From assembly GCA_963810635.1 (NCBI GenBank), contig CAWEOB010000002.1:2320-66319 (forward strand): DNA of 64,000 nucleotides. Reading direction: 5' to 3'. Under the pieces are notes generated by a model. That model was not told the DNA's origin, did not search any database, and saw only the letters and a list, made by a program, of their open reading frames with translations. This document shows, in pieces, positions 452 through 57,137 of this stretch. The DNA is from an uncultured Actinomycetes bacterium (GTDB taxonomy: Bacteria; Actinomycetota; UBA4738; HRBIN12). The stretch's first letter is position 1. The number at the start of each line of letters is the position of its first letter. The translations under genes and the position numbers were made by a program.

Positions 452-1166
452 GTGCCCATGTGGGTGTTCCCCCTCGTCGCGGCCATCGTCGCGTTCGCCT
501 TCGCGGGCGCGTTGAGCCGGCAGTACCTGGGGCGGCGACGTCCCTCGCAACTCGTGTGGGCGCTCGCCCTCGTCATGTACGGCGCGGCGTCCTTGGCCGT
601 GATGATCGGTGCCTTGAGCGGCTGGACGCCGTTCCTCTTCGAGCTCTACTGGACGTTCGGCGCCGTGCTCACGGTCCCGTTCCTGGCGGGCGGGGAGATA
701 CCTCCTGCTCGTCCGAGGGCGGGCCGTGGTCTGGGTGGTGGGGCTCGCTTTGATCTTCGTCGTCGCGTACACCCTGGCGGTGCTCGCGGGCGCTTCGTAC
801 GATCTCGTGGCGCTCGCCGAGCGCCTGCCGTCGGGGAAAGAGGTCTTCGGCGACGGCGCCCCGGCGCACCGGCTCCCGCAGCTGATCTCGATCCCCTCCT
901 ACCTGATCCTCGTCGGTGGCGCGCTGTGGTCCGCTTGGAAGATGCGCGGGCACCCCGAGCTCCGCGATCGCTTCCTCGGCACGCTCCTCGTCGTGCTCGG
1001 TGCCTCGATCACGGCGGTCGGTGGGTCCGCGTTCGCCGCGCTCGGCAAGCTGCCGCAGTTCTCGGTGACGTTGCTCGCCGGCATCGCCGTCATGTATTGG
1101 GGCTTCCTCCGCGCGTCACGACGCGTCGAACCGGCAGCGTCCGTCGCTGCCGAACCCGTGTCCTGA
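452..1166 (+). CDS. multi-pass membrane protein of unknown function, with an apparent frameshift near 695-701
   Basis: ORF 452.. begins with hydrophobic helices (MPMWVFPLVAAIVAFAFAGAL...TVPFLAGGE). It loses sense after about 698. ORF 726..1166 in the next frame continues with helices, and that frame is open back to 699 (YLLLVRGRAVVWVVGLALIF). Start is GTG 452 or ATG 458. Confidence 0.5.
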
Positions 1167-1340
1167 CACCGATCCGACGCCGACCGACCCGGTCCCCGGG
1201 TGATCCGATCCCCGCAACGGCGCGAAGCAGGGACGTGCCGCCACCTCGAGGAAGGGGGAGCGAGGCGTCACGGCGGAGGGACCGCCGGCGCCGGTGCGCG
1301 GCCGTTCGATGCCACCCATCTCCCGACGGAAGGAGCAGCT

Positions 1341-2740
1341 TTGTCTCGTCTCCGAACCGCGCTCGCGGCAGCCGCCTCGGCGCTGGCGCTCGGGGCCGGT
1401 CTGTTCGCAGGACTGGCGCCGAACCCATCGATCGCGTCGAGCCACCGCGAAGCGCCGCTGGTCGCAGCCGACCCCCAGGTCGACAACACGGATCTCTACG
1501 CGTTCCGCTCGCCGTCCCGGCCGGGGTACGTGTCGTTCGTCAGTTCCTGGATCCCCTTCGAGGAACCGGCGGGTGGCCCGAACTTCTACCTGTGGGCCGA
1601 GCACACGAACTACGACATCAACATCGACAACGACGGGGACGCACGCGCGGACCTGATCTACCGGTACACGTTCGACACGAGGTACCGGAACCCGGACACG
1701 TTCCTCTACAACACCGGGCAGGTCACGTCCTTGAACGACCCTGATCTGAACATCAACCAGACCTACGACCTGGTCCGGATCGACGTCGATCGGCACACGA
1801 GCCGCAAGCTCTTCGACAACGAGAAGGTCGTGCCGAGCGATGTCGGCGCCGCGTCGATGCCCAGCTACCACGGGCTCTTCAACGGCGGCATCGACAAGAA
1901 CCTGGGTTCGTACTCGTGGGTCGGACAGTCCGATGACGCGTTCTTCCTCGACCTCCGCGTGTTCGATCTGCTCTACGGGACCGATCTGACGGAGGCCGGC
2001 GACGACACCCTCCACGGGTTCAACGTCAACACGATCGCACTCGAGGTGCCTCGCGACGTCGTCCGCGGTCCGAACGACTCGGTGATCGGCGTGTGGAACA
2101 CGGCGTCGCGTCCAAGCATGCGGGTCCAGCACGCCGACGGTACCCAGACCTTCAGCGGGAGGGACGTCCAGGTCTCGCGACTGGGCATGCCGCTCGTGAA
2201 CGAGGTCGTCGTGCCCGTCGGCGCGAAGGACTACTTCAACGGCTCGCGTCCGAAGGACGACGAGCAGTTCCTGGCGAAGGTGCAGGACCCCGAGCTGCCG
2301 CGGCTGATCGGCGCCGTGTACCCGACGTTCTTCCCGAACGTTCCGGACAGCGACCCTGGTACCGCGGGATCCAGCGGGCCGACCTGATCCAGGTGTTCCT
2401 GACCGGGGTCCCAGGGCTCAACATGCCGGATGGCGTGGAGCCCGCGGAGATGCTCCGCCTGAACCTCGACACGCCGCTCTGCGGTCGCCATGGCGCTCCC
2501 GCGTGCAGCAGGCTCGGGGTGCTTGGCGGCGACCTCCAGGGATTCCCGAACGGGCGGCGGCTCAGCGACGACACGATCGACATCTCGCTGCGCGCGGTGA
2601 TGGGCGTGCTGCTCGCGAACCACGATCCGGCGGCGGAGACGCTCGGCGATGGTGTCGACGCCAACGAGTCCCCGTTCCTCGGTCACTTCCCGTACGTGGC
2701 CTACCCGCACAGCGGCTCGGACCCAGGCCCGCACGCGTGA
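1341..2740 (+). CDS. secreted DUF4331-family protein, with an apparent frameshift around 2350-2385
   Basis: TTG 1341 is preceded by GGAAGGAG. A signal-like N-terminus (LSRLRTALAAAASALALGAGLFAG) is followed by SSHREAPLVAADPQVDNTDLYAF and PNFYLW...NIDNDGDARADL, typical of DUF4331. The C-terminal part (RADLIQVFLTGVPGLN...FPYVAYPHSG) lies in the frame of ORF 2093..2740. Confidence 0.75.
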
Positions 2741-2759
2741 GGTCGGAAGGATGAGGCCG

Positions 2760-2791
2760 GTGGGGGCCGCGCCGGGAGGCGCGGCCCCCAC
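2760..2791 (+). terminator. GC-rich hairpin (14-bp perfect stem, GGGA loop) between the DUF4331 and TPR genes
   Basis: gtgggggccgcgcc-ggga-ggcgcggcccccac, read directly. It starts 20 nt after the stop at 2740 and is followed by GGAGGAG and ATG 2816. There is no T-tract, which is common in high-GC genomes. Confidence 0.45.
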
Positions 2792-2815
2792 CACCCATCG
2801 GAGGAGTCCGAACCC

Positions 2816-4153: not shown

Positions 4154-5610
4154 GACGCATCGTCATGCTGGCCGCGCTCACGCTCGGCGTCCTGCTCCTC
4201 GCTCCGCCGTCAGCCCTCGCGCATCCGCTGGGCAACTTCACGGTCAATCGGTACAGCGGGCTGCGGATCCTGCCGGGTGAGATCCGGGTCGAGTACGTGA
4301 TCGACATGGCGGAGATCCCGGCGTTCCAAGAGCTTCCTGCGATCGACCGCGACGGCGATGGTGCGGCGTCGGCCGACGAGCTGGCGGCGTGGGCGGAAGC
4401 CCAGGCCGAGCAGCTCGCCCCTTCCTTGATCCTGGAGGTGGACGGCGAGCGGCTGAACCTCGCACCCGAGGGCGCGAAAGCCCAGCTGCTCGCCGGCCAA
4501 GGCGGCCTCGACACGCTCCGATTCGAAGCCACCTTCGCCGCCGCGGCGCCCGAGGCGGGCCGCCTCTCGTACGAGGACAGGACCGGCGATGACCGGATCG
4601 GTTGGCGCGAGGTGACCGCTGTGGGGGTCGATGGCCTTGCCCTCTCGGGCTCGTCGGTGCCGGCGCAGAGCATCAGCGACGAGCTCCGGGCCTACCCGGA
4701 GGACGCGCTGTCGAGTCCCCCCGACGTTCGAACGATGTCCGCTACGTTCGAACCCGGCGACGGCGTGCCGGTCACGGAGCGGGACACCCGCGACGGGGGC
4801 ACCGCCCGCCCGGGCACCGAAGCCGTGCCCTTCGCGGGCGCCCTCACCGCGGAGGGGGTCCCGTTGGTGGCGCTCGCGCTCTTGATCGCGGTCGGGCTCG
4901 GCGCCTGGCACGCCCTGTTGCCCGGACACGGGAAGACCATCATGGCGGCCGCCATGGTCGGTTCCGGCGCCCGCGGACGCCAAGCGGTCTCGGTCGCGGC
5001 GGCCGTCGCCCTCATGCATTCGGCATCGGTGCTCGCGCTCGGACTCGCCGTGCTCGCCCTCGAGCGGACCTTCCGACCGGAGACGATCTACCCGTGGCTC
5101 GGCGCCCTGGCCGGACTCGCGGCCGTGGCGGTCGGCGCGTACCTCCTGCGCGCCCGGTGGGGAGCGTGGCGTCACCATCGCGCTCACGGGGCCGCCGAGC
5201 ACGATCATGGCCACGATGGTGGTGGTGCTGCCCGGCACGATCACGGAACGCTCGCGCATGGACACCCGCCCACCCATGCCGTCACGCTCGATCCGACCGG
5301 GAGGCTGGGAGCGAAAGGGCTCGTCGCCTTGGCCCTGGCCGGGGGGATCCTTCCGGCGCCGAGCGCCCTCCTCGTGATGTTGGCCGCGATCCACGCGCAC
5401 CGGGTCGTCTACGGGATCGCGCTCGTCGCGGCGTTCAGCGCCGGTCTGGCGGCTGCCCTGCTCGGCGTCGGCATCGGCGCCCTGCGAGCCCGCGACGTCG
5501 CCGCCCGGCGGCTGTCGGCCACGGCATCGCTCGCGATCCCGCTCGTGTCCGCCGCCGCCATCCTGGTGGTGGGGGCGGCCCTCACCGTGCGAGCCGTCGC
5601 GAGCGTCTGA
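4150..5610 (+). CDS. nickel/cobalt-type (RcnA/HoxN-like) metal transporter with an N-terminal extracytoplasmic domain and a His-rich loop
   Basis: GTG 4150 overlaps the TPR stop (GTGA). A signal peptide ends ALAHPLGNF. There is a DRDGDGAASADE Asp-rich motif, an HALLPGHGKT motif, a loop HHRAHGAAEHDHGHDGGGAARHDHGTLAHGHPPTH, and C-terminal helices. Confidence 0.65.
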   Translation: MRRIVMLAALTLGVLLLAPPSALAHPLGNFTVNRYSGLRILPGEIRVEYVIDMAEIPAFQELPAIDRDGDGAASADELAAWAEAQAEQLAPSLILEVDGERLNLAPEGAKAQLLAGQGGLDTLRFEATFAAAAPEAGRLSYEDRTGDDRIGWREVTAVGVDGLALSGSSVPAQSISDELRAYPEDALSSPPDVRTMSATFEPGDGVPVTERDTRDGGTARPGTEAVPFAGALTAEGVPLVALALLIAVGLGAWHALLPGHGKTIMAAAMVGSGARGRQAVSVAAAVALMHSASVLALGLAVLALERTFRPETIYPWLGALAGLAAVAVGAYLLRARWGAWRHHRAHGAAEHDHGHDGGGAARHDHGTLAHGHPPTHAVTLDPTGRLGAKGLVALALAGGILPAPSALLVMLAAIHAHRVVYGIALVAAFSAGLAAALLGVGIGALRARDVAARRLSATASLAIPLVSAAAILVVGAALTVRAVASV

Positions 5611-5623
5611 GACCCGTGGCCGC

Positions 5624-6346
5624 TCAGGCGGCGGAGGACCACGCGGGCGAGCCGGGCTCCGACGGCTTCGAGTCGACCGGCTCGACCGTCACGATCACCT
5701 CGTGGATCGGCACGGGGCCGACGACGACCTTGAGGGCGACCAGGCCGGTGGACGACGGCACGAACTCCCCGAGGTAGGCGGCTCCATCCGCGGTGATGGC
5801 CCAGAGCCGATAGATGGCGCCGAGCGGAGGCTGTGGCACATCCTCCCCGATCACGTAGAACTCCTCGACGCCCGGCGCCGACACCTCGGTGATCGGTCCC
5901 ATCTTCGTGGTCTCCGCCTGGGGGTCGTTCGCGAACTCCTGTGCTTGCTGGAGATCCGCCTGCTGGAGCGTGACGCCCCCCATCGGGGCGGTTCCGCCGC
6001 GCGTGAGGGCCAGTCCTCCGAGCCCGACCACGAGCATGACGCTGGCGGCCACGGCCACGATCCTGCCGCCGTTCCACCAGCTCTCGGCGGACCTCGCTCG
6101 GCCCCGCCTCGGATCGAGTTCGCGATGGATACGAGGCAGGAGAGTGTCGGGCGGCTCGATGACCGGAGCATCGAGCCCCAGGTCGGCCGCGACGGCGCCG
6201 AACGCCAGGAGGGTGTCGCGGCAGGTCACGCAGTCCGGGACGTGCTCCGTGAGGAGGCGGTCCGCCTCGGCCGCGTCCTCGCCGGAGAGGCTCCGCAGCG
6301 CATAGCCGGCGAGCAGCTCGTCGATGGTCTCGTGGCCGTCGGTCAC
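5624..6346 (-). CDS. anti-sigma factor (zf-HC2 N-terminus, single TM, RskA-like C-terminal domain)
   Basis: 240 aa with an HVPDCVTCRD zinc-finger-like motif and a central TM (IVAVAASVMLVVGLGGLAL). Its start overlaps the sigma gene stop by 4 nt (ATGA). Confidence 0.75.
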   Translation of the reverse strand: MTDGHETIDELLAGYALRSLSGEDAAEADRLLTEHVPDCVTCRDTLLAFGAVAADLGLDAPVIEPPDTLLPRIHRELDPRRGRARSAESWWNGGRIVAVAASVMLVVGLGGLALTRGGTAPMGGVTLQQADLQQAQEFANDPQAETTKMGPITEVSAPGVEEFYVIGEDVPQPPLGAIYRLWAITADGAAYLGEFVPSSTGLVALKVVVGPVPIHEVIVTVEPVDSKPSEPGSPAWSSAA

Positions 6347-9529: not shown

Positions 9530-10237
9530 CTATCCCGCCGCCACGCAGAACGGACCCTGCGGAGGCTGATCGATGGTGTTCGTCCCTCTCGGCGGACCCA
9601 GGACGACCTCGGACGTGTCGACCGTGACCAGGTCGCCCTCGATCGTGATCTTGAACCGGTCGAGGCCGCGTGGCGCCGGGCCGAGCTGATACTCGCCCGC
9701 GCCGTTGTACTTCGAGCCGTGGCACGGGCACTCGAACCACTTGGACGAGTTGCAGAACGGGACGCGACAACCGAGGTGGACGCACCGCTGGTAGAGCGGC
9801 ATCAGACCGTCGGTCGCGACCTGTTCCTCCGGGTAGTTCGCCAGCCCTTCGCCCGGCTGACCGTTCCAAGGGACCAGGTAGAAGCGGCCCGCTCCGTTGT
9901 AGACGAACCCCTCGGCGTCGGCCTGTGCCTGGAGCTCGGACAGGTTCCCGGCCGTGATCACCGAGCCGAACCCGCCGCGGAGGTTCGGCCACAGGAACGC
10001 GATGGTGCCGGCACCGAACTCGGCCCCGAACACGAGGACCGACGTGATGAGCGACCGACGGAAGAAGTCGCGACGCGACATGGCGGCGACCGGCTTCGAA
10101 GGTGCGGCGCCCGGCTCGGCCGCCGCCGCCGCCTCCCGTGCTCGCCTGCTCGCCTTCATGGACTGCAGCATGAAGATCGTGACGAACAGGATCACGCCGA
10201 GGAGGGCCAGGATCACCGCGATGGTCGCGTTGCTCAT
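9530..10237 (-). CDS. qcrA: Rieske [2Fe-2S] subunit of the cytochrome bc-type complex
   Basis: [10 protein letters not shown]... at 10237. Tat-like SRRDFFRR motif. Rieske boxes CVHLGCRV and CPCHGSKY. Its start overlaps the stop of the upstream gene by 4 nt. Confidence 0.9.
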
Positions 10238-11064
10238 AGCTCGAAGAACACCCCTTGCGCCCAGGGCCAGATCCAGTTGTAGCCCGGGCCGCGCATGAAC
10301 GAACCGATGATCGTGAGCACCGCGCCGAACGTGAACAGGATGGTGAACATGGTGATCGCGACCTTGCGATCGCCGGGTCGCACGCTCGGGTTGCGGTCGA
10401 CGAAGGGGACGGCGGCCAGCCCGACGAGGATGAACGTGGGGATCGAGATCCCCGCCACCATGGGGTGGAAGTAGCGGAGCAGCTCCTGGAGTCCCAAGAA
10501 GTACCAGGGCGCCTTCGACGGGTTCGGGGTGAGGTTCGGGTTGGCCACCTCGCGGAGCGGGGCGTTGATGAACGTGGAGAACACCAACAGGCCCGCGAAC
10601 AGGATGAGCATGGCCACGAACTCCTCGATCAGGAGGTGCGGCCACACGTTCACGCGGTCGCCCTGCTCGCGCTCGACCCGCTGGATGCCCTCGGGGGGGA
10701 CGAGGGCGAGGAGCCGGTGCTTGTCGGGCGCGCCCTTCTTCGGCGTGGGGAGGTTCCCCGTAGGCAGAGGAGCCTCGCGCTGCGCGGTGGTGACGGTGGG
10801 TGCGGCCGTGGCGACGGCTGTCGCGGCGGGAGCCGCGGCAGCCGCGGGTGCGGCGGACGCGGGAGCTGCAGCTGCTGCCGCGGCGGGCGCCGCGGCAGCA
10901 GCGGGCCGCTCCTCGACCTCGTCGGGGTGCGCGGCACGGTAGCTCCGGATCGCCTTGGACCGCGCGCGGCCCTCGGCGATCCGACGATCCACGCCGGTGG
11001 CCATCTGCGCGTCGAGCTCCTGCTGGTAGATCTCGAGGTCTTTCGGAGAGTCTTCCCAGGTCAT
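10234..11064 (-). CDS. cytochrome b C-terminal-domain protein (subunit IV / PetD-like) with a long Ala/Pro-rich N-terminal extension
   Basis: 276 aa with a [20 protein letters not shown] motif and three TM helices. The N-terminal roughly 110 aa are low complexity ([35 protein letters not shown]). Confidence 0.85.
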
Positions 11065-11072
11065 GTGCGCTC

Positions 11073-11845
11073 CTAGAGAGGGCCCGATACCCGCCGTCCT
11101 TGCGGATCCGCCAGAAGTGGACCGCCAGGAAGATGACCAGCACGAAGGGGAGCGCGAGCACGTGCAAGACGTACCAGCGCAGCAGCGTCTGCGGGCTCAC
11201 GATGGCGCCGCCCAGCAGGAGGAAGTTGGCTTGCTTGGCGATGAACGGCGAGTACCCGGCGAGCGAGGTCCCCACCGTGACCGCCCAGATCGCCAGCTGG
11301 TCCCAAGGGAGCAGGTAGCCGGTGAACGACAGGCCGAGCGTCAGGAACAACAGGACGACCCCGACCACCCAGTTGAACTCGCGCGGCGGCTTGTAGGCGC
11401 CCGTGTAGAAGACACGAGCCATGTGCAACGTGACCGACAGCACCATGAGGTGGGCTCCCCACCGGTGGAGGTTCCGCATCAGATCCCCGAAGAACACACC
11501 GGTGCGGATCGTCTGCATGTCCTGGTACGCGATGGCGCCGCCCAAGTCGGCCATGGGCCGGTAGAAGAACATCAGGAAGATGCCGGTGAGCGTCAGCAGC
11601 ACGAAGAGGAAGAACGAGAGACCACCGAGGCAGAACGTGTAGGTGAGCTTCAAGCCGTGCCGCTTCACCTTCGTGGGGTGCAGGTGGTACAGCACGTTGT
11701 TCATGGTGGCCAGCGCCCGATCGCGCTGCGTGTCCTTGTAGCCCTTCCGGTAGATGGAGCCGGGACGGAAGATGGACTTCCAGACCTCGGTCTCGCGGAG
11801 GCGGTCGCCGACCTGGCTCGGCGACGGCAACTTGATCTTCGCCAC
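11073..11845 (-). CDS. qcrB: cytochrome b6-like subunit (four-helix N-terminal half of cytochrome b), with an apparent 1-nt frameshift near its 3' end (about 11085-11092)
   Basis: GTG 11845 is preceded by GGGGAAGGGGGG. Heme-ligand His pairs occur in [23 protein letters not shown] and [27 protein letters not shown] shift at the GGG run gives ...GG(V)SGPL-stop (TAG at 11075..11073), followed by AGGAG and the ATG of the next gene. Without the shift, the ORF reads through three genes (793-aa artefact). Confidence 0.85.
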
Positions 11846-11943
11846 GTCCCCCCTTCCCCTGGCTACCGGCTGTCCGGCCGCGTCACGTCCGGCTGTATCA
11901 CGTCGGTCCAAGCCCCTCGGTCATCGCGGTTCGTTCCCCTGGA

Positions 11944-12347: not shown

Positions 12348-12798
12348 CTAGCGGTATCCGCCCGTCGGCCTCGTGTCGCCCGAGCCGCCCCGCAGCTTCT
12401 TCCGCCAGTTCTGCATGGCGGCCGCGACCACGAGCACGGTGATGATCGGTCCTGTCGTCAGGCCCATGGCGATGGCATCGCGGAGTTGCAGCAGCGTCTC
12501 ATCGCTCGGGACCGGGAAGCTGTTGAAGAACCAGACGCTCTCCCAGACGAAGGGCTGCTTCAGGAAGGCCTCGAAGATCCGTGGGACCGCCCCAGCCGAG
12601 GGTCTGCTCGGAGAAGTACATCCAGAACGACGGCATGACCGCCGACGTCATCAACAGGAAGAAGATGAGTGCGAAGGAGAACAGGACGGCGTTCGTCCAG
12701 GACCACTCGAAGTCGCGGACGGATGTCTCCATCCGGGAACGCATGCCATGGGTCCGCTGCTTGAGCGGAGACTTCGTGACGACGTCGACCTGGCTCAT
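12348..12798 (-). CDS. small membrane protein, first gene of the Rieske/cyt b operon, with an apparent frameshift around 12576-12594
   Basis: ORF 12499..12798 (MSQVDVV...WTNAVLFSFALIFFLLMTSAVMPSFWMYFSEQTLGW) loses sense. The adjacent frame, by my translation, reads RIFEAFLKQPFVWESVWFFNSFPVPSDETLLQLRDAIAMGLTTGPIITVLVVAAAMQNWRKK... and ends at TAG 12350..12348. Confidence 0.5.
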
Positions 12799-13830: not shown

Positions 13831-13908
13831 GCATGACCGTGGCAGTGGGACCGCGCGTGGTGTCCCGTGCCGCTCACGCGGACGCTCGCAGTAGCATCCG
13901 AAGACCGC

Positions 13909-15533
13909 ATGGCTCCCTCGGCCCCAACCTCAGCGGCTCGGCCCACGGTCCGGCGCTCCCTCGCCGTGGCGTGGCGGTCCTTGCGCTCGATGCGCACCGC
14001 ACTGATCCTGCTGCTGCTGCTCGCGCTGGCGTCGGTAGCCGGATCCTCCTCCCGCAGATCCCCAACAGCCCCGATCGGGTCGCTCGCTACCTCACGGATC
14101 ACCCCGTCGTCGGTGAGCTGTTCTGGCGTCTCGGCCTGTTCGACGTGTTCGGTTCCTGGTGGTTCGCCCTCATCACGATCCTGCTCTTCGTGTCCCTGAT
14201 CGCGTGCCTCCTCCCGAGGTCGCGCGCGATGGTCCGCACGCTGCGCCAGCGCCCGGTCCAGGCGCGGGAGCTCGACGGGTTCCGTCATGTGGCCGTGCTC
14301 ACCGTCCCCGGCGAGCCCGACGCGGCGGTCGTGACCGCACGCCGCGTGCTGGCCAGACGCTTCTACCGTGTCGAGGCCGCCGCCGACGGGCAGGCGCTCG
14401 CCGCCGACAAGGGAGCCCTCCGTGAGATCGGCAGCCTGGTCTTCCACTGGGCGTTCGTGCTGTTGCTGCTCGGCGTGGTGGTCGGGAAGGGATTCGGGTA
14501 CAGCGGCCGGGCAACGATCGCGGAAGGTCAGACCTGGACCGACGCGGCGGCGAACTACGACCCCCTCTCGCTGCGAGCCGGTCGGTTCTTCGCGGGAGAG
14601 CACACGGGGGTCGGGGTCCGGCTCGTGTCCTTCCGGAACGACTTCCGCGCCAGCGGCGTCCCGATGGACTTCGTCTCCGCGATCCAGGTGCTCGACCCGG
14701 ACGGGAACGTGGTGCGCGACGAAGACGTCCGTGTGAACCACCCGGCCGAGTACGGAGGAATCCGCATCTTCCAGTTCGGGTTCGGATGGGCGCCCGTGGT
14801 CACCGTCGACGACGATGGGGAGGCGATAGCCGACGGGCCGATCGTGATGGGGCAGGCGACCGCTCCGCAGGGTGTGTCGCAGCTCGCGATGCCGTGGCGG
14901 GGCTTCGTGAAGCTCCCCGGGCTCCGGCCGCAGGTCGCCGTCCAGCTGGAGCTGTGGCCCGACAGCGAGGCGTACGTCCGGAGCATCGAGACGGGGATGC
15001 CGCAGCCGATGGTGGGAGAGAACGCTCCGTTCATGCGCTACACGGTCTGGTCCGGCCGGCTCCTGGATCCGTCGCTCGCCGAGCTGGACACGCGGTTCAT
15101 GGAGGAGGTCGGCAGCGGCGTGATCGGTGCCGGGCAGACCGTCGACCTCGGGCACCGGTGTGTGGTCGACGCCCCCGGTGAGGAGCCCGGCGCCTCGTCG
15201 TGCCCTGCGGGCACGACGACCCGCCTCACCATGTCCTTCCCCGATCTGGTCCACTACTCCGTGCTGCAGGTGACGAAGGACGTGGGTGTCCCCATCGTGC
15301 TCGCCGCGGCTATCCTCCTGCTGATGGGGCTCCTGCCCGCCCTCTACACGTCTCGCCGCAAGCTCTGGGTCCGCGCGGAACCTGCCGAGCACGGCACCAC
15401 GTTGCTGATCGGCGGGTTCGCGCTCCAGCGCAAGCCACAGTTCGAGGAGGAGTTCGCATCCGTGGTCGCAGCGATCGCGGAAGCGGCCGGTGGGACGTCG
15501 GCATCGACGCGGGAGATGGTGGGGGCGAGATGA
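13909..15533 (+). CDS. resB: cytochrome c biogenesis protein ResB/CcsB, with an apparent frameshift at 14041-14053
   Basis: The N-terminus (MAPSAPTSAARPTVRRSLAVAWRSLRSMRTALILLLLLALASVAGS) is in ORF 13867... The rest (LLPQIPNSPDRVARYL...WWFALITILLFVSLIAC...HYSVLQVTKD) is in the frame of ORF 12894..15533. The break falls on GGATCCTCC. Confidence 0.85.
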
Positions 15534-16498: not shown

Positions 16499-16596
16499 GC
16501 AGGCGGCCCTGGCGCGGCGGGGGCCGATGATAGAGTCCTCGCGCCCGCGCCCCGAGCGGGGTACGCCACCACCTGATCGTGGGGAGAGGTAGGGAC

Positions 16597-32301: not shown

Positions 32302-34740
32302 GCGCGGACCTCATCGCCCTCACGATCGACGGCAAGGAGGTCGTGGTCCCGAAGGGAACGCTGATCATCCGGGCAGCCGAACAGCTCGGCATCGAGATCC
32401 CGCGGTTCTGCGATCACCCCTACCTGGAGCCGGCCGGCGCGTGCCGGCAGTGCTACGTGCAGATCGAGGGCCAGCCGAAGCTCGCCACCTCATGCACCGT
32501 GACGGTCGCCCCCGGCATGGTGGTGCAGACCCAAGCAACGAGCGACGATGTCCGCGAAGCCCAGGTCGCGAACCTCGAGTTCCTGCTGCTCAACCACCCG
32601 CTCGATTGCCCGGTCTGCGATCGCGGCGGCGAGTGCCCGCTCCAGGATCAGGCCCTGGCGTACGGCCCCGGCGAGAGCCGGTTCCGCGAGGCCAAGCGCG
32701 TCTTCGAGAAGCCGATCCCGCTGTCGCCGCTCGTCAACCTCGACCGTGAGCGCTGCATCCTCTGCGCCCGGTGCACCCGCTTCTGCGACCAGGTCAGCGG
32801 TGACCGGTTCATCGAGCTCTACGCACGCGGCGCCGGCGAGCGGGTCTCGATCGCGGCGGGGGAGGACTTCCGCTCGCCGTTCAGCGGGAACACGGTCCAG
32901 ATCTGCCCCGTCGGCGCGCTGACCGCCACGCCGTACCGGTTCGTGGCTCGACCGTTCGATCTCTCCTCGGGGGACTCGATCTGCCAGCACTGCTCCAGCG
33001 GATGTGCGGTGCGCGCCGACGTCCGGCGCGGTGAGGTCGTGCGCATGCTCGCGCGCGACAACCCTGAGGTGAACGACGCCTGGATCTGCGACAAAGGCAG
33101 GTTCGCGTTCCGATCCGCCGACGCGCCCGATCGGATCACCACCCCGCTGCTCCGCGACCGGGGCCTCGAGCCGGCGTCGTTCGGCGAGGTCTTGGCATGG
33201 GTCGCGGAGCGGGCGACGGGGGCCCGCGTGGCGTTCCTGACGGGTGGACGCCTGATGGACGAGGACTATTACGCGCTCTCGAAGCTGGCGCGGACCGTCT
33301 TCCGGACGAACGACCTCGACCACCGGCGTCACGACGGGGGGGCCGCCGAGCTCGTGGCTGCCGGCGTCCCTCTGAGCATCACGTCGCGGGATCTGGAGCG
33401 TGCGAAGGTGATCCTGGTCGCGGGCCTCGACGCCGAGCAGGAGGTCCCGATCCTCCACCTGCGTCTGCGGAAGGCGGCAGCCCGCGGAGCTCGGATCGTC
33501 GTGGTGCACCCGCGCCGGACGCGCCTGCACGACGTCGCCACGCACGTGCTGGCATCGCCGGCGGAGCAGGCCCGGCTCCTCGCCGCGGGGGCCCGCGGCG
33601 AGGCGACCGGGAGCGAGGCGCTCGACGACGTGCTCGCCGGCCTGCACGACGTCGGCGATGCCGGCGCCGTGCTGGCCGGCGAGCGGCTGGAGCGAGCGGC
33701 GGGCGACGCGCTCGCGATCGCCCGCTCCGCGGGCGCTCGCTTCGGCTACGTGCAACGACGGGCCAACGACCGCGGCGCCCTCCGTGCCGGCGTCCACCCC
33801 CGGCTCCTCCCGGGCGGGCGTCCGTTCACGGACGCAGCAGCCCGCGCGGAGGTCGAGGCGGTGTGGGGTCCGATCATGGCTGCCGATGAGGGTCGCAGCC
33901 GCCATGAGATCCTGGCGGCCGCCGCTGCGCGCGATCTCGACGTCCTGTTCCTGATCGGGGTCGACCCCCTCCGTGACGAGCCCGATGCCGGGCTCGCTCG
34001 ACAGGCGCTCGACAACGTGCCGTTGAAGGTCGTGCAGTCGCTCGAGCTCGGCTCCCTCGAGCCGTTCGCGGACGCCTTCCTGCCGGCAGCCGCGATCCTG
34101 GAGAAGGACGGTCACCTCACGGATTGGGAAGGCCGCTCGCAACGGCTCCAGGCGATGCGGACGTCGGCAAGGATCGAGCCGCCCCGACTGGGAGATCTTC
34201 TGCGGGCTCGCAGCCGCCATGGGGGATGATCTCGGGTTCGACACGCTCGATGAGCTCCACGAGGAGATGGGTGGTCTGCTCGCTCCCCGGGCGGCGGACG
34301 GAGATCCCGCCGAGGTCGGCGCCGCCCGGGCCGCCCGCCCCGCGGACGGCGCCGTCGAGCTGTTCACCTACCCGCTGCTCGTCGATGAGGGGCGGCTGAG
34401 CGATCGAGCCGATCAGCTCAAGGCGGCACTCGGTGAGGGCCCGTTCCTCGAGGTCCATCCGGACACCGCCTCGCGCCTCGGGCTGACGGACGGCGGGCGG
34501 GCACGGGTGGCGACGGTTGCCGGGGACGCCGAGCTCCCCGTGCGGATCGCGGACACGATCGCGATCGACACAGCGTTCGTGCCCTTCAACCAGCCCGGGT
34601 TCGCGGCGAACATGCTCCTGTCGGGTTCGTTCCTCACGCATGCGACGTTGACGGCCGTCGCACCGGACCACGCGGACGACGGTGAGCAGGAAGAGGGTCC
34701 CGCCGCCGGCGCGCCGGCCCCCGAGGAGGTGCCCGCCTGA
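32298..34740 (+). CDS. nuoG: NADH-quinone oxidoreductase subunit G, with an apparent 1-nt frameshift at about 34172-34186
   Basis: GTGA overlap with nuoF. RFCDHPYLEPAGACRQCYV, HPLDCPVCDRGGECPLQ and CILCARCTRFC motifs. The C-terminal 173 aa are in ORF 34219..34740. The junction reads ...ARIEPP / DWEIFCGLAAAMG at a CCCC run. Confidence 0.9.
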
Positions 34741-42223: not shown

Positions 42224-43245
42224 CCGTCATGCGTCGAGTGATCCCCGGACTCGAACCCCCCGACGCCGTCTTGGAGGCGGCCGTCCGTTCGCGTCTCGAT
42301 CGTGTCGAGGAAGCCCTCGAGAAGGCGGTCGTGGCCGACTCTGATCTGCTGGCCGTCACCGCGTCGCACCTGCTCCAGGCCGGGGGGAAGCGGTTCCGTC
42401 CCATGCTCGTGCTGCTGTCGGGCTACTTCGGCGATCCCACCGATCCTCGCCTGATCCCGGGCTCGGTGTCGATCGAGCTCGTCCACCTGGCCACGCTGTA
42501 TCACGACGATGTCATCGATGAGGCCGTCGACCGTCGGGGCGTTCCCAGTGCCAACGCCCGGTGGGACAACACGGTGGCCATCCTGACCGGTGATTACCTC
42601 TTCGCCCGTGCCTCCGAGATGTCCGCCGACCTCGGCCCCGACGTCTGCCGGCTCCTCGCTCGAACGATCGCGGTGCTCTGTGACGGGCAGATCAGGGAGG
42701 TGGATGTCTCCGGGAAGGTCGAACAGACCGAGGACAGCTACCTCGAGATCATCCGACGCAAGACGGGGGTCCTGATCGCCACCTCGTGCCGGCTCGGCGG
42801 CATGCTCTCCGATGCGAACGAGGCCTACGTGGAGACGCTGGATCCGTTCGGCGAGTCGCTCGGTCTCGCCTTCCAGCTCTCGGACGACATCATGGACGTC
42901 ATCTCCACGCAGATCGAGCTCGGCAAGGAGCCGGGAACCGACCTGAAGGAAGGGGTCTACACCCTCCCCGTGCTGCATGCGCTGCATGAAGGGAGGCACC
43001 GAGAGGAGCTGCAGGACCTGTTGCGCCACGGCGCTCCGGACGGCGAGCTGCTGGATCGAGCGCTCGAGATCATCCGGACCGGGGGGTCGATCGAGCATGC
43101 CCGGGCGGCGGTTGCCGCCGAGGTGGCCCGGGCTGTGGACCTCGCGCATCAGCTCCCCGACGGGGCGGCCCGCCACGCGTTGGTGCAGCTCGCCCGGTTC
43201 CTCGCCGTGCGATGCGGAGCGGATCCGGGGGCGGACCCATCTTGA
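42217..43245 (+). CDS. long-chain polyprenyl diphosphate synthase (HepT/GrcC1-like; menaquinone side chain)
   Basis: Both Asp-rich motifs are present ([18 protein letters not shown]), with a GKRFRP motif. Start is GTG 42217 (overlapping the nuoN stop) or ATG 42229. Confidence 0.85.
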
Positions 43246-46711: not shown

Positions 46712-47013
46712 GTGGTCCGCCTGCCGCTGCTCCTGATCTTCTCGGCGCTGCTCTTCAGCGCGGGATCTACGGCGTGCTCGCCCGGCGCAACGCGGTCATG
46801 GTGCTCATGGCCATCGAGCTCATGCTGAACGCCGTCAACGTGAACCTCGTTGCCTTCTCGGCCGAGCTGCAGGACGTCGGGCCGCAGGTGTTCGCCCTGT
46901 TCGTGATCGCGATCGCAGCGGCCGAGGTCGGCATCGGCCTTGCCATCGTGATCCTGCTGTTCCGCAACCGGGCGTCGATCAACGTGGACGAGGTGAACCT
47001 CCTCAAGTGGTAG
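46712..47013 (+). CDS. nuoK: NADH-quinone oxidoreductase subunit K, second copy, with an apparent 1-nt deletion at 46762-46767
   Basis: GTG 46712 gives [21 protein letters not shown] 46774.. holds the rest ([27 protein letters not shown]). Reading GGG as GGGG restores ...[14 protein letters not shown]. The break falls on GGGATC. Confidence 0.85.
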
Positions 47014-49008
47014 ACCTCGGGATCCTCGCCGCCGAAGGGAGCGAGGCTGTCGCACACGGCGTGCCGAACTGGTTCGTCCAGCACGCGTACCTGATCACGC
47101 TCCTCCCGTTCGCCGCCGCGGCGCTCACCTTGTTCTTCGGCAAGCGAACCCCCGGCAAGGGACCGGTGTACGGCATCGTGTCCCTGGCGGTCGGGCTGGT
47201 CCTGTCGCTCGGCGTGCTGTGGAGCTTCGCGCAAGGCGGCGGCACCTTCGAGCACAACATCGAGTGGTTCACGATCGGGCCGCTGCACATGGAGCTCGGC
47301 TTCTTCGTCGACGGCCTGACCGCGGTGATGCTCGTGGTGGTCACCTCCATCTCGTTGGCGGTCCACGTCTACGCGCTCGGGTACATGCACGGCGACTCGC
47401 GCTACACGTGGTTCTACGTGGTGCTGTCGCTCTTCACGGGGGCCATGCTCGTGGTGGTCCTGGCCAGCAACCTGTTCCAGTTGCTCGTGGGGTGGGAGAT
47501 CGATGGGCGTCTGCTCCTACCTGCTGATCGGTCACTGGTTCGAGGATCACGCGAATTCGAGCGCCGCGATCAAGGCGTTCATCACGACGCGGATCGGCGA
47601 CGTCCCCTTCATGTTCGGCATCTTCGCCTTGGTTCTGGCCACCGGCCTGACCACGTCGAACATCCAGGTGATCGGCGACGAGGTGGCCGGGGGGCACGTC
47701 TCCACGTTGCTGATCACCGTCTCGGCGCTGCTCCTGTTCGGCGGCACGATCGGCAAGAGCGCCCAGTTCCCGCTCTACGTGTGGTTGCCGGATGCGATGG
47801 CGGGCCCCACGCCCGTCTCCGCGTTGATCCACGCCGCCACCATGGTGGCCGCGGGCATCTATCTGGTGGCGCGGATGTTCGAGGTCTTCGTCCAGGCCGA
47901 CCCGATCGCACTGACGGTCGTGGCCGTGGTCGGCGCCATCACCCTGTTGCTCGCCGCGTTCCTGGCCCTCGTGCAGAACGACATCAAGAAGGTGCTGGCG
48001 TACTCCACCATCTCGCAGCTCGCCTACATGGTGGCGGCGCTCGGCATGGGCGAGGCCGGGTATCCGGCCGCCATGTTCCACCTGTTCACGCACGCCTTCT
48101 TCAAGGCCCTGCTCTTCCTCGGAGCCGGCTCGGTGATCCACGCCGTCCACTCCAACGACATGAAGGACATGGGCGGGCTCCGCAAGCCGATGCCCATCAC
48201 GTATTGGACCTTCCTGATCGGTTCGCTGGCCCTCGCGGGCGTCCCACCGCTCGCCGGCTTCTTCTCGAAAGACGAGATCGTGCTGGTCGCGAAGGACGAA
48301 GGGGTGTGGTGGCTCGCGGTCGTCCTCCTCGTCGGCGCGGCGATGACCGCCTTCTACACCACGCGCTTGGTGCTCAAGACCTTCTTCGGCGAGTACCGGG
48401 GAGAAGCTCACCCGCACGAGTCCCCGCGCGTGATGACGACCCCGCTGATCGTGCTCGCCGTCACCACCTGCTTCGTCGGGCTGCTCGGGTTCGCGCCGGT
48501 CGGCGCCCCGTTCCTGGACTGGGTCTACTTCGGCAACGAGCCCCACGAGGCCATCTTCAGTCCGCTGGTCGCCGCGATCTCGGTCGCCGTGGTCCTGATC
48601 GGCGTCGCGATCGGGTGGACCTTGTACAAGCGGTATCGGACGCCCGACCCGGTCGAACGGCTCGGCCCGCTCTACCGGCTGCTCGACCACAAGTACTACC
48701 TGGACGACCTGTACTGGCGCGGCATCGTGAAGCCGATCCGCGACCCGCTCGCTGCCGGCGTCTACTGGTTCAACCAGAACGTGCTGGACGGTGTCGTGAA
48801 CGGCGCGGCGTCGGTGTCGCGTGGCCTCGGGTCGCTGGTGATGTGGTTCGACCGAACCGTGATCGACGGCGCCGTGAACGGCGCCGGGGGTGTGATGGAG
48901 CTCTTCGGCAGAGGACTGCGGACCATCCAGACGGGCAGGGTGCAGTGGTACGCGGTGGCGTTGTTCGCCGGCGTGATCATCTTGACCGTCGTCTTCGTGA
49001 GGGTGTGA
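47007..49008 (+). CDS. nuoL: NADH-quinone oxidoreductase subunit L, second copy, with an apparent 1-nt insertion at 47498-47503
   Basis: The N-terminal 164 aa are in ORF 47007.. (ending ...[11 protein letters not shown]). ORF 47503..49008 continues with [13 protein letters not shown] and [34 protein letters not shown]. The break falls on GAGATCGATG. Confidence 0.88.
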
Positions 49009-52060: not shown

Positions 52061-52099
52061 CGGACCGGTCGGCGCTCGCTTCGCTCGGGAGCGGCAGCG

Positions 52100-53455: not shown

Positions 53456-53475
53456 GGTGGGCTCACCCCCGGCGT

Positions 53476-53512
53476 GCGAGCGGGGCCGGCCCGAAGGGCC
53501 GGCCCCGCTCGC
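53476..53512 (-). terminator. perfect 17-bp GC-rich hairpin (GAA loop) between the aminotransferase and decarboxylase genes
   Basis: gcgagcggggccggccc-gaa-gggccggccccgctcgc, read directly. It lies 25 nt downstream of the aminotransferase stop on the minus strand. Confidence 0.5.
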
Positions 53513-53536
53513 TCCACCTGACCGGTCAGGCGCTCG

Positions 53537-54985
53537 TCAGGAGACGAGCGCCTGACAGAACTCCCCGAACGCGTCCACGTAGACCTGGACGTCCTCCTCG
53601 GTGTGTTGCACCGAGATCGTCCATTGCTCCTCGTCCCCGGGTGTCATGAAGATGCCGCGGTTCACCATCCACGGGTACGACGCCCAGTAGAGGTCGGGCA
53701 CCGTCTCGAGGAAGTCCCGGTAGTTCGTGAGCTTCTCGGACCGGTACGAGACGCAACCCTTCGCGCCGAGGTCCACGGTGTGTGCGGGGATGCCGGCTTC
53801 GGCGATGGCCCGGTCGCATCCTTCCGCGAGCATGGAGCCGAGCTTGCCGAGGTGGTCGTACGCATCAGGGGTGAGGACCTGTGTCAAGGCCGCGAGGCCG
53901 GCGGCCGACGAGAGCGGGTTCCCGTTGAAGGTCCCCTGCTGCGCGGCCCCCTTCGTCACGAACTCCATCAGGCGAGCCTCGCCGCCGAACGCGCCCGTGG
54001 TGGCGCCGCCGCCGATCGCCTTCGCGAAAGCCGCGAGGTGCGGCTTCACGCCGTAGCGCTCCGCCGTCCCACCGTACGCGATGGTGCCACCGCACTTCAC
54101 CTCGTCGTAGATCAGGACGGCGCCGTGCTTCTCGCAGGCGTCACGGAGGGCTTGGAGGTAGCCGGGCAGCGGCTCCACGATCCCGATGTTCATCATCACC
54201 GGTTCGAGGATCACCGCCGCGACCTGTCCCTGGTTGTCCGACAGCGCCTGCTCGACCGCGGCAGCATCGTTGAACGGAACGACGATCACCGTGTCCCACA
54301 GGGCCCGCGGGATGCCCTTCGAGGTGGGTTGCGTGACGTACCAGGACTGTCCGTCGGCGCCGGTGGTGAAGCGGAGGTCCAGCACGTCGGACTCCGGGAC
54401 CACCGAGAACAGCAGCGAATCGTGGTGCCCGTGGTACGAGCCCTCCATCTTGATGACCATGTCGCGTCCGGTGGCCGCGCGCGCCACACGCAAGGCGTCC
54501 ATGGTCGCCTCGGTACCCGAGTTGACGAACCGCATCTGCTCCAGCTGGAAGCGCTCACAGATGGCCTCGGCCAGCGCCACGGTGTCGGGCGTGGTGACCG
54601 CGAAGTGGATCGCGTTCTCGGCAGCCTTGTGGAGCGCCTCGACGATCTTCGGGTGCGCGTGGCCGACCACGTTCACGCCGAAGCCGCCGTGGAAGTCCTT
54701 GTACTCGGTGCCGTCCACGTCCCACACGCTGGAGCCCTTGCCCCGCTCCAGGTAGACGGGGTAGGGGTCGCCCACCTGGAAGTTGGACGACACGCCGCCG
54801 GGGAGGCTCTTCAGGGCGCGCAGGTAGAGCTTCTCGGAGCCCGTCGTTCGGGTCAGCAGTCGCTTGCCCTCGACGTCGGCGATCTCCTTGGCACGTGCCT
54901 TCAGTCGTTCGAGATCCACGGGTATCACCTCCGGAGTGGCGGCAAGCCTACCCGGGGGCTCGTGGACCAGGCAATCCGGGGTCAT
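53537..54985 (-). CDS. class-III (GSA-aminomutase-like) PLP-dependent aminotransferase
   Basis: 482 aa with FVNSGTEATMDALRVARAATGR, ILEPVMMNIG and LIYDEVKCG motifs. GGAGGG lies upstream of ATG 54985. Confidence 0.8.
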   Translation of the reverse strand: MTPDCLVHEPPGRLAATPEVIPVDLERLKARAKEIADVEGKRLLTRTTGSEKLYLRALKSLPGGVSSNFQVGDPYPVYLERGKGSSVWDVDGTEYKDFHGGFGVNVVGHAHPKIVEALHKAAENAIHFAVTTPDTVALAEAICERFQLEQMRFVNSGTEATMDALRVARAATGRDMVIKMEGSYHGHHDSLLFSVVPESDVLDLRFTTGADGQSWYVTQPTSKGIPRALWDTVIVVPFNDAAAVEQALSDNQGQVAAVILEPVMMNIGIVEPLPGYLQALRDACEKHGAVLIYDEVKCGGTIAYGGTAERYGVKPHLAAFAKAIGGGATTGAFGGEARLMEFVTKGAAQQGTFNGNPLSSAAGLAALTQVLTPDAYDHLGKLGSMLAEGCDRAIAEAGIPAHTVDLGAKGCVSYRSEKLTNYRDFLETVPDLYWASYPWMVNRGIFMTPGDEEQWTISVQHTEEDVQVYVDAFGEFCQALVS

Positions 54986-55026
54986 GGCCTCGTGCCCTCC
55001 GACCGGATCGCGCCTAGGCTTCCTCC

Positions 55027-57137
55027 GTGATCGCGTGCCGAACCTGCGGTGAGGAGAACGCCGACCGGGCCCGCTTCTGCCAAGCCTGCGGGACGTCCCT
55101 CGAGGCGGACGTGTCGGCGCGGGAGGAGCGGCGGGTCGTGTCGGTGCTCTTCGTGGACCTGGTCGGGTTCACCTCGCGATCCGAACGGCTCGATCCCGAA
55201 GACGTCCGCGCCATGCTGACCCGCTACTACGAGCGAGCGAGGGCCGAGATCGAGCGTTTCGGGGGAACCGTGGAGAAGTTCATCGGCGACGCGGTCATGG
55301 CCGTGTTCGGCGCTCCGGTCGCCTACGGGGACGACCCGGAGCGTGCCGTCAGGGCGGCGCTCGCGGTGCGCGACTCGATCGCCGACATGGACGAGGCCGA
55401 TCCGATGCTCGAGCTGCAGGTCCGTGCCGCCGTCAACACGGGCGAGGCGATCGTCGAGCTCGGCGCCGATCCGGGAACCGGTGTCGCGATGGTGGCCGGC
55501 GACGTCGTGAACACGGCGGCGCGACTGCAGTCGAGTGCCCCCGTCAACCAGGTGCTCGTGGGGGAAGAGACCTACGCGTCCACGAGAACGGTGATCGAGT
55601 ACCGAGAAGCCGATCCGGTGATCGCGAAGGGGAAGGCGGAGCCCGTTCCCGCATGGGTGGCGCTCGCTCCGCTCGTCGCCGCCGGGGAGCGGGTCTTCTC
55701 CGAGGTCCCGCTCGTCGGGCGGGGCGAAGAGCTGGCGACCCTGCGCGGCATGTGGGACGCGGCCGCGGTCGAGCGGCGCTGTTCCCTGTTGACGGTCTTC
55801 GGCCCTGCGGGGATCGGGAAGTCACGCCTCGCGCACGAGCTCGCCCACCGCGTGGAGGCCTCCGGCGGCCTCGCGCTCCGCGGTCGTTCGGCCGGCTACG
55901 GCGACACCGCTCCGTACAGCGCGTTCGCGCAGCACGTGGCCCAGATCGCCGGGATCTACGACAGCGACGACGCGGCCCACGCGATCGAGAAGCTCCGCGC
56001 GAAAGCTGCCGATCTCGCAGCGGCGGACGATCCCGTCGAGGTGGCGGATGCCGTCGCGATCCTCGCGGGTCTGCCGGCGGAGCCGACCGCGGCCGACCGA
56101 GACACGCTCTATTTCGCTGCGCGGCTGTTCGTGGAGGCCGTGGCGAGGGAACGCCCCACGCTCCTGGTCTTCGAGGACATCCATTTCGCCGATCCCAGCC
56201 TGCTGGACCTCGTCGAGTTCCTGGCCTCCAGGGTGCAGGACGTCCCGCTGCTGATGATCGCGACGGCCCGCCCGGAGCTGTTGACCTCGCGGCCCACGTG
56301 GGGGGGCGGGCTGCTGGCGTCGAGGGCCATCTCGCTGGCCCCGCTGAGCGAACAGGATGCCGAAGAGCTGACCGGTCGGTTGTTCGACCAGCGGGGTCTC
56401 GACGTCCTGGCGGACCGCGCCCGGTCCTTGGCCGCGTCGAGCGACGGGAATCCACTGTTCATCGAGGAGCTGACCGCGTCGCTGGCCGAGCGATCGACGA
56501 GGGACCCGCGGCAGCTGCCGGGGACCATCCGTGGCATCGTCGCGGCGCGGTTGGATGCGCTCCCGGGAGCCGAGCGCGACGCCGTCCTCGATGCCTCCGT
56601 CGTGGGCAAGGTGTTCTGGCGGGGGTTGCTCGAGCGGTTGCGTCCCGACCGGGAAGACCTCTCCGGCCTGCTCGGATCCTCGAGCGGCGGGATCTGATCC
56701 GTCGCGAGGCCTCGTCACGCATCAAGGGAGACCAACAGTTCTCGTTCAAGCACGGTTTGATCCGACAGGTCGCCTATCTCACGCTCCCTCGCGAGGAACG
56801 TCGCCGGTGTCATCAGACGACCGCCGAGTACCTGGAGGAGATGACCCTCGGAGCCGGGGACGCGGACGCCATGTTGGCCTACCACTGGCGGGAGGCTGGC
56901 CACCCGGACCGGGCGATCCAGCACCTCATGGCAGCGGCGGAGATCGCGGGACGCGGATGGGCGAAAGCGCGGGCGGCGAACCTCTACGCTCAAGCCCTCG
57001 AGCTCGTGCCCGAGGACGACGTGGACCTCAAGCGGGACCTCGTCCGGAAACGGGCGGTCGCGGCAGCAGCGGCGATGCACATCGCAGATGCGGAGGCTCT
57101 GCGTGGGCGCCAGCGCGACGCAGGCGCCGCCGGCTAG
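55027..57137 (+). CDS. zinc-ribbon / class III adenylate-guanylate cyclase / P-loop ATPase / helical-repeat signalling protein, with an apparent frameshift around 56665-56685
   Basis: CRTCGEENADRARFCQACG, then the cyclase core VLFVDLVGFTS...KFIGDAVMAVFG...GDVVNTAARL, then Walker A GPAGIGKS. The C-terminal roughly 150 aa (LERRDLIRREASS...FSFKHGLIRQVAY...) are in the frame of ORF 55653..57137. The break is near GGATCC. Confidence 0.8.

Follow-up and report, generated by a model that had tools for sequence, protein, structure and literature searches.

The DNA stretch analysed here (the window, 64 kb) belongs to a presumably long-read MAG of 3 Mb, labelled G000, with 11 contigs (C1, C2, C3 and C5 among them) and a completeness of 81.7%. 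Between 1 and 58 kb it carries conserved membrane protein, cytochrome, nuo and other genes in which the reading frame is interrupted. A codon-model Viterbi pass over the window placed same-strand frame switches within such genes at 697, 2354, 8624, 11073, 12578, 14030, 16723, 25324, 31041, 34181, 46762, 47516 and 56673. All 13 frame breaks claimed in a preliminary description of this DNA were present, each Viterbi switch lying at most 16 nt from the coordinates it gave. The remaining switches in this part, at 6345, 8810, 9532, 10239, 12350, 19617, 30427, 36364, 45714, 50581 and elsewhere, are gene boundaries, and 13 is therefore the break count there.

Junctions were checked against intact orthologues from up to 7 related genomes. 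At each of the 13 sites, one coding segment of the relatives aligned across two frames of the window, and a Pfam search of the fragments showed model coordinates continuing across the breaks. When stop-to-stop ORFs from the relatives served as tblastn queries, false junctions were frequent in this genome of 69% GC; junctions were retained only if they fell inside the relatives' own coding segments. The relatives were in frame at all 13 sites, and neither the coding signal nor amino-acid conservation was diminished downstream of any break. Alignment to 1–7 relatives localised the indels at base level as 8 insertions and 5 deletions.

The first break (position 700, plus strand) affects a conserved membrane protein without a Pfam match and is an extra A within GATC (GAGAT[A]CCTC in the window, GAGAT-CGTC in relatives). 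In the DUF4331 protein gene (2366–2368, plus strand), at a site covered by one relative only, G001, the G run abutting ATC on its 5' side is short by one G (GCGGG(G)ATCCAG); the two frames together read A-G / I-Q-R and match the Pfam DUF4331 model from 1 to 312. A further conserved membrane protein (8626, minus strand) has one base added, GGATCGATCATCC against GGAT-GATCATCC in relatives. The fourth break falls within the final codons of the gene for cytochrome b (b6-like; 11086–11090, minus strand), where GAGATCC became GATAC-C with a net loss of one base. In the multi-genome alignment GAGATCC is conserved in 3 relatives, while G010 has GAGATGC; the reverse complement GGGATCTC is also found in G031. 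This break removes the stop codon of cytochrome b and thus creates a spurious 793-aa ORF (9530–11911). Downstream of the cytochrome b pair, the gene of a small conserved protein (12574, minus strand) contains an extra base, GGATCT[T]CGAG compared to GA-C(A/C/G)T in relatives.

All later breaks are on the plus strand. ResB, a cytochrome c biogenesis protein (14046–14047), lost a base after GGATCC (GGATC-CTC, compared to GGATCCCTG in G011), and its match to the Pfam ResB model begins at 20. The ctaC gene for cytochrome c oxidase subunit II (16727) reads AAGGATC[C]TCCTG with an extra base, where relatives have AAGAA-CCTC or AAGGA-TGTC. The polyprenyl synthetase gene (25323) has an extra A within GATC, CCCGA[A]TCCGGAG versus GCAGATCCGGAG in G010, and matches the polyprenyl_synt Pfam model at 11–81 and then, in the next frame, at 77–190. 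An extra base was found in nuoF (31052; GCGT[C]GATCCCCC, with GCGT-GATCG in G012), and nuoG (34176) has an extra G abutting GATC on its 3' side (AGGATC[G]AGCCG versus ATC-AGCCG in 7 relatives). In the second-operon nuoK (46762–46764), the G/C run abutting GATCTAC on its 5' side is short by one base, and the Pfam Oxidored_q2 match begins at model position 14. The second-operon nuoL (47502) carries an extra G abutting the 3' side of GATC (GAGATC[G]ATGGGC), with Proton_antipo_N followed by Proton_antipo_M in the Pfam search; it is the sole site of the 13 that is not of the GGATC/GATCC type. The last break, in an adenylate/guanylate cyclase with an AAA_16 ATPase domain (56679–56680), is a base lost after GGATCC (GGATC-CTCGAG versus GGGTCGCTCGAG in G004).

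A separate dense error zone (59165–63800, minus strand) covers three genes for membrane proteins, of the LPG_synthase_TM type, YihY/BrkB and AI-2E transporter families, which together show about 20 frame switches, every fragment being a partial Pfam model match. GATC was found at 19% of breaks in dense zones and at 22% of controls. This zone represents another error class than the GATC breaks.

The GATC and GGATCC positions listed in the preliminary description were correct, whereas its guess of one GATC per 50–60 nt was too high: the 64 kb contain 772, one per 83 nt, with an observed/expected ratio of 1.00. It had called for a formal test of break-to-GATC enrichment, and enrichment was found with P between 1e-7 and 1.6e-12. 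For ten of the 13 indels, the assembly has an exact GATC no more than 3 nt away, compared to 11.8% of positions (P = 1e-7). When GATCs restored by removing the inserted base are counted as well, the association extends to 13/13, against 12.4% of positions (P = 1.6e-12), and is tighter than the ten of 13 first claimed; of the three breaks earlier scored as lacking GATC, two have a base inserted into the motif (GAT[A]C and GA[A]TC), and the third has GATAC-C in place of GAGATCC. At 12574, 16727 and 31052, a GATC-free reconstruction codes equally well; if it is the true one, the motif would be a product of the error. The extended forms GGATC/GATCC occur at 12 of the 13 sites, compared to 46% of the GATC sites in the genome (P = 7e-4).

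Insertions repeatedly gave GATC[G]A (equivalent to T[C]GATC on the opposite strand), GAT[A]C, GA[A]TC and GATC[C/T]TC, and deletions repeatedly shortened GGGGATC to GGGATC and GATCCC to GATCC. The suggested role of homopolymers held, as a secondary one, where a short run of G or C abuts the motif, and the window deletions do lie in runs of 3–4 nt that touch GATC; homopolymers elsewhere were immaterial. A second, CcrM-like motif GANTC was rejected: the GAATC, GATTC and GAGTC found close to breaks result from the insertion of a single base into GATC.

The same pattern was observed throughout G000. The search yielded 571 frameshift candidates under strict and 1,183 under loose criteria, or 1.9–4 per 10 kb, the strict set comprising 405 of +1 and 166 of −1. 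Of the strict candidates, 47.8% had a GATC at a distance of up to 15 nt, versus 27.1% of controls (P = 5e-25). GGATC was 3-fold enriched and its occurrence peaked sharply at the break itself; the excess per break was 0.337 GGATC-class sites versus 0.102 other GATC sites, and per site, GGATC/GATCC was about 3.8 times as error-prone as the other GATC sites. After windows with GGATC/GATCC were dropped, the k-mers that remained enriched were garbled GATCs (AGAATC 58-fold, AGAGTC 25-fold, AGTATC 24-fold). Outside dense error zones, GATC was found at 45% of breaks compared to 22% of controls, despite a positional error of about 15 nt. Homopolymer runs of 5 or more showed no excess around +1 breaks (4.4%, versus 4.7% for controls), and only about 1% of GATC sites were affected. 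Additional localised cases on contigs C1, C3 and C5 showed the same error types. Comparison with contig C7 of G001, which is syntenic with C2 and part of C3 only, added 16 junction rows outside C2, of which at least one is a gene boundary.

Applied to 110 kb from three relatives sequenced with short reads, the same pipeline returned no candidates. For GATC sites conserved in 3 or more relatives, a leave-one-out count detected a single G000 indel, but this count is insensitive because, at a nucleotide identity of about 75%, the majority of the affected GATCs are specific to the lineage; a census of private indels was used in its place. In the 5-genome alignment, 8 of 11 private isolated 1-nt indels of G000 were at GATC, compared to 2/6 in G001, 2/11 in G004, 3/12 in G010 and 0/0 in G015. 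The difference between G000 and G001, G004 and G010 pooled (7/29) was significant (Fisher's test, P = 0.009), the platform of each genome being assigned from record names. Over 50 kb of synteny, 18–33% of private indels in other long-read MAGs of the genus were at GATC, not far from the chance level of 12–17%, versus 64–73% in G000. G010 carries 2–3 errors of the G000 type, e.g., T[C]GATC and GA[G]TC. For substitutions at conserved GATC, the odds ratio relative to other 4-mers was 0.77 in G000 and 0.53–0.60 in relatives; CATC makes up most of the spectrum, as expected of ordinary synonymous variation, so that the somewhat greater deviation of G000 need not reflect errors.

There is little doubt that the breaks are an assembly artefact. 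The preliminary description had interpreted them as indel errors rather than gene inactivation, and this reading is borne out by relatives in frame, continuing conservation and the tie to GATC; the genes at the 13 breaks should be treated as intact. More specifically, it is highly likely that the 13 breaks are systematic, motif-specific one-base consensus errors of a long-read MAG, with a strain-specific base modification at the motif as the probable cause. The few-contig members of the genus are Microflora Danica MAGs, which were assembled from Nanopore reads only with Flye and one Medaka round (PMC12313526), and the G000 assembly is most likely Nanopore-only and neural-consensus-polished. 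The basecaller or polisher would mis-segment the signal at GATC, with GGATC/GATCC being most prone, above all GAGATCC (GGATCTC on the other strand), and a strain-specific modification at a GATC-type motif would provoke this mis-segmentation. Taken by itself, base modification at the motif is a reasonably likely cause of the artefact.

Methylation systems are known to cause lineage-specific, motif-centred Nanopore errors (PMC10687267). As in the described cases (Dam GATC, Dcm CCWGG and lineage-specific motifs; PMC10687267, PMC6591954), the G000 errors recur at one short motif, survive polishing and may be specific to one lineage among relatives presumably sequenced in a similar way, in a strain with its own restriction-modification system. 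They differ in that they are 1-nt indels, mostly insertions, associated with a presumed modification, whereas the known modification-mediated errors are chiefly mismatches rather than indels (PMC10687267); moreover, the G000 motif looks asymmetric (GGATC), while the Dam target is palindromic. The G000 errors also resemble the homopolymer-type errors of Nanopore-only MAGs in that genes are broken, completeness is lowered and one base restores the frame, but long homopolymers are not their main site.

The Dam-like or GATC-specific methylase predicted by the preliminary description was not found by profile search of G000. Dam-type PF02086 (MethyltransfD12) had no match in G000, which is about 82% complete, or in 12 other genomes of the genus, while the controls matched. 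PF00145 and PF02384 were likewise absent from G000, and the assembly contains no C5 or Type I/IIG methylases. The sole DNA methylase found in G000 is a Type III Mod, which is unique to this genome within the genus and absent from G010, G001 and G004. Adjacent res and mod genes lie on contig C1 (6.7–11.7 kb), homologous to an intact pair in G025 with 33–58% identity. The G025 Mod (homologue at C1:6723–9104) and Res (C1:8989–11741) proteins match the same strand of G000, each in several frames; families were assigned on the G025 pair (MTase_III, E = 3e-114, and REase_III). Both G000 genes appear frameshifted, and the island is badly assembled, C1 having a dense error zone at 5–15 kb.

An adjacent mod/res pair is shared with Type III systems, which consist of a PF01555-class Mod and a ResIII helicase-nuclease (e.g., EcoP15I). 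Type III Mods methylate one adenine of an asymmetric 5–6-bp motif. The res-mod pair is the only candidate enzyme, and its type would suit the asymmetric GGATC. The target-recognition region of the G000 Mod does not align to its homologues, so the Mods of G019 and G025 cannot be assumed to share its specificity, and these genomes were dropped as a test of the link between Mod and GGATC. It is possible, if doubtful, that in this uncultured soil actinobacterium the Type III system was acquired horizontally and is active, that its Mod methylates the GGATC adenine and that the frameshifts are a read-out of the methylome.

Among the other explanations, the one that survives best attributes the errors to sequence context alone: GGATC-type k-mers would be mishandled in a high-GC background, modified or not, and G000 would show more of them owing to its chemistry, model version or coverage. 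Context may explain part of the errors, since Mod-less MAGs of the genus show a few identical types, such as the insertions seen in G010 (T[C]GATC, GA[G]TC). The small fraction of GATC sites hit (~1%), the strong local context with recurrent GAGATCC and the failure of the G000 searches to find a GATC-specific methylase point the same way. However, a generic error should strike all long-read MAGs alike, and the GATC share of 64–73% in G000 against 18–33% elsewhere makes context as the whole explanation unlikely.

Random errors from low coverage or mixed strains, with a coincidental GATC link, would fit the dense zones, where up to 20 breaks per 5 kb occur without GATC enrichment; outside them, the association at 13/13 sites in the window and at 45% versus 22% genome-wide, together with the same few products arising repeatedly, renders this very improbable. 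Equally improbable is another GATC-linked cause, either phosphorothioation at G-ps-ATC or polishing with GATC-cut Hi-C reads. Partial motif-site occupancy is seen in phosphorothioate systems, and only part of the motif sites is affected in G000; the search for DndE found no match but was uninformative, as the control genomes had none either. One product, GATCGATC, equals a DpnII-type Hi-C ligation junction, but single bases within GATC (GAATC, GATAC) are not junction products, and neither cause is supported. Real mutations, through pseudogenisation or frameshifts decoded by programmed recoding, have a negligible probability: although the breaks truly stand in the deposited sequence, this reading implies that the essential respiratory genes for cytochrome b, ctaC, resB, nuoF, nuoG, nuoK and nuoL were all inactivated at once, along with about 570–1,180 broken genes in a 3-Mb genome, coding signal and conservation continue past the breaks with relatives in frame at every site, and the sites share a 4–5-nt motif (GATC) instead of X XXY YYZ slippery heptamers with downstream structures.

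With consensus errors at a probably modified motif as the preferred reading, spurious indels split about 570–1,180 genes of the 3-Mb MAG. Automatic annotation will consequently list respiratory genes as truncated or duplicated, call pseudogenes that are not real and predict long ORFs that are spurious, and the completeness of G000 is underestimated too. Because a small set of motif-specific rules governs the errors, correction or flagging is feasible, whether by reference-guided polishing, methylation-aware models or masking of GGATC-adjacent indels. If the methylome interpretation were true, motif-clustered breaks in Nanopore-only MAGs could be mined for methylation motifs and methylase assignment without raw signal. 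As for the organism itself, its biology at this locus is ordinary and its genes are intact; the sole lead is an indirect one, pointing to a modification that may target GGATC and to a Type III system as a candidate.

A codon model trained on 777 long open reading frames of G000, the genome whose contig C2 holds the window at 2320–66319, was applied in a Viterbi pass with seven states, six for the reading frames and one for non-coding DNA. Same-strand frame switches with no nearby stop codon were found in the window at 697, 2354, 8624, 11073, 12578, 14030, 16723, 25324, 31041, 34181, 46762, 47516 and 56673; each of the 13 frame breaks claimed in the preliminary description was matched by one of them to within 16 nt. 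The remaining same-strand switches in window 1–58 kb represented ordinary gene boundaries. When coding segments from syntenic DNA of six relatives were used as tblastn queries against the window, single segments each matched two abutting frames at the breaks, with support from 1 to 7 relatives per break, nuoK included. Pfam searches confirmed the names DUF4331, cytochrome b, ResB, COX2, polyprenyl synthetase, NuoF, NuoG, NuoK, NuoL and a cyclase with an AAA_16 domain, and model coordinates ran on from one side of the breaks to the other. The cytochrome b break lies within the last few codons; because it removes the stop codon (indel at 11089), a spurious 793-aa ORF (9530–11911, minus strand) stays open through cytochrome b, the petD-like gene paired with it and the gene that follows. 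The window holds two tandem complex I (nuo) clusters, at 28–43 kb (nuoF and nuoG breaks) and 43–52 kb (nuoK and nuoL breaks), whose synteny is kept throughout the genus.

The indels were placed by nucleotide alignment to relatives (square brackets, inserted base; round brackets, lost base; hyphen, alignment gap). Insertions were located at 700 (GAGAT[A]CCTC), 8626 (GGATCGATC versus GGAT-GATC), 12574 (GGATCT[T]CGAG), 16727 (GGATC[C]TCC), 25323 (CCGA[A]TCCGG), 31052 (GT[C]GATCC), 34176 (GGATC[G]AGCC) and 47502 (GAGATC[G]ATGG). Deletions at 2368 and 46764 each removed one G/C from the run immediately 5' of GATC, those at 14047 and 56680 both read GGATCC(C)TC, and at 11089 a conserved GAGATCC was garbled to GATAC-C.

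The window contains 772 GATC sites, one per 83 nt (observed/expected 1.00) and not one per 50–60 nt as first estimated by eye. A formal test upheld the proximity of breaks to the motif: 10/13 breaks lay within 3 nt of GATC, compared with 11.8% of window positions (P = 1e-7), rising to 13/13 versus 12.4% when positions whose deletion makes GATC were included (P = 1.6e-12). GGATC was present on one strand at 12/13 break sites; among GATC sites across the genome its share is 46% (P = 7e-4). The breaks at 698, ~11090 and ~25320, initially listed as having no GATC, proved on alignment to relatives to be GATC sites destroyed by the error itself. At 12574, 16727 and 31052, another single-base repair without a true GATC gives an identical or similar protein. 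At 34176, (nearly) all relatives carry Ile-ATC; at 47502, G004 carries Ile-ATC and the other relatives Val; at 700, the alternative repair would require an ATA codon. These three unambiguous sites favour errors at true GATC, sites of the T[C]GATCC type being ambiguous, and true GATC sites probably underlie all 13 breaks, and at least 10.

Comparison with four relatives revealed three more 1-nt indels private to G000: at 13898, in a conserved GTAGCATCG element upstream of resB; at 16539, upstream of ctaC; and at 42227, at a gene start. These are intergenic or start-proximal, and 0/3 lie at GATC or disrupt a conserved frame. At 5160–5269 (plus strand), the codon model exits and then rejoins the same frame over ~110 nt, representing either a compensating indel pair or a variable segment; the sole aligned relative, G001, has no coverage there.

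Robust same-strand switches numbered 1,703 when the same Viterbi pass covered all G000 contigs, and 571 of them were strict frameshift candidates (405 +1 and 166 −1), lying >40 nt from both the upstream frame's next stop and the downstream frame's previous stop; looser limits gave 1,183. GATC lay within 15 nt of 47.8% of the strict candidates versus 27.1% of 20,000 coding controls (P = 5e-25), and GGATC/GATCC was enriched ~3-fold, with a positional profile maximal at the break. In sparsely affected regions, each break carried an excess of 0.337 sites with GGATC on one strand and of 0.102 other GATC sites; per site, the two classes differed 3.8-fold. Further junctions on contigs C1, C3 and C5, placed against G001, gave identical products (GA[A]TC, G[T]ATC, T[C]GATC, GATC[C]). 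With GGATC/GATCC windows removed, the top k-mers were AGAATC (58-fold), AGAGTC (25-fold) and AGTATC (24-fold); GANTC was rejected as a motif, since these k-mers are GAGATC plus one inserted base and the apparent signal is an error by-product.

Breaks in G000 were clustered, with up to 20 in some 5-kb bins. GATC was found at 45% of isolated breaks versus 22% of controls, and genome-wide the dense zones showed no enrichment (19% versus 22%). Window 59165–63800 (minus strand) is such a zone, with ~20 frame switches across three membrane-protein genes whose fragments match LPG_synthase_TM (202–302 of 302), AI-2E_transport (263–324 of 327) and BrkB (6–114 of 259). Given this lack of enrichment, it constitutes a separate error class, probably caused by low coverage or strain mixture close to the contig end.

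When the same pipeline was run on relatives, three few-contig genomes yielded 3–6 candidates each, and three short-read genomes, over 110 kb, yielded none. A 53-kb syntenic block was aligned across five genomes; isolated 1-nt indels private to one genome numbered 11 in G000 (7 at GATC under the automatic rule, and 11089, the garbled site, as an eighth), 6 in G001 (2 at GATC), 11 in G004 (2), 12 in G010 (3) and 0 in G015 (0); the GATC share in G000 exceeded that of G001, G004 and G010 pooled (Fisher's test, P = 0.009). Long-read relatives thus carry indel errors too, mostly away from GATC, which favours a property of G000 DNA over a generic k-mer weakness. Pure sequence context may contribute in part, as G010 contains two errors of a type identical to those of G000. 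Frame-breaking 1-nt indels also occur in syntenic respiratory genes of the few-contig MAGs G010 (L019–L021), G001 (L011–L014) and G004 (L015–L018), at ~1 per 10 kb, mainly as insertions in G/C-rich non-GATC contexts.

Restriction-modification methylases have been documented to cause motif-centred, lineage-specific Nanopore errors, chiefly mismatches (PMC10687267). Microflora Danica MAGs are Nanopore-only, assembled with Flye and polished once with Medaka (PMC12313526); Nanopore is also the likely sequencing platform of G000, a 2.96-Mb genome of an uncultured actinobacterial genus from soil (69% G+C, 11 contigs, completeness score just 81.7%). The Dam-like enzyme predicted earlier was absent: searches of G000 for PF02086 (Dam), PF00145 (C5) and PF02384 (Type I/IIG) gave no match while positive controls matched, and no genus genome searched had a Dam homologue. 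In the DndE search, the control genomes themselves gave no match. The sole DNA methylase found in G000 is a PF01555 gene adjoining a ResIII-type gene, both homologous to the intact Type III res–mod pair of G025 and G019 (MTase_III, E = 3e-114; REase_III). The G000 pair, which within the genus occurs only in this genome, lies outside the window at C1:6723–11741 (minus strand, locus L135), in an island of atypical composition with many frameshifts, and res and mod are each broken into 4–5 frame pieces. Because the target-recognition region of Mod does not align to the homologues, sequence does not reveal the Mod motif; the GGATC bias would be matched by a Type III Mod that methylates a single adenine of an asymmetric 5-mer.

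The breaks had been read as assembly errors, and this is borne out: the 13 breaks are an assembly artefact of an already known type. Methylation is a plausible, though unproven, cause, and the 13 broken genes should be treated as intact.
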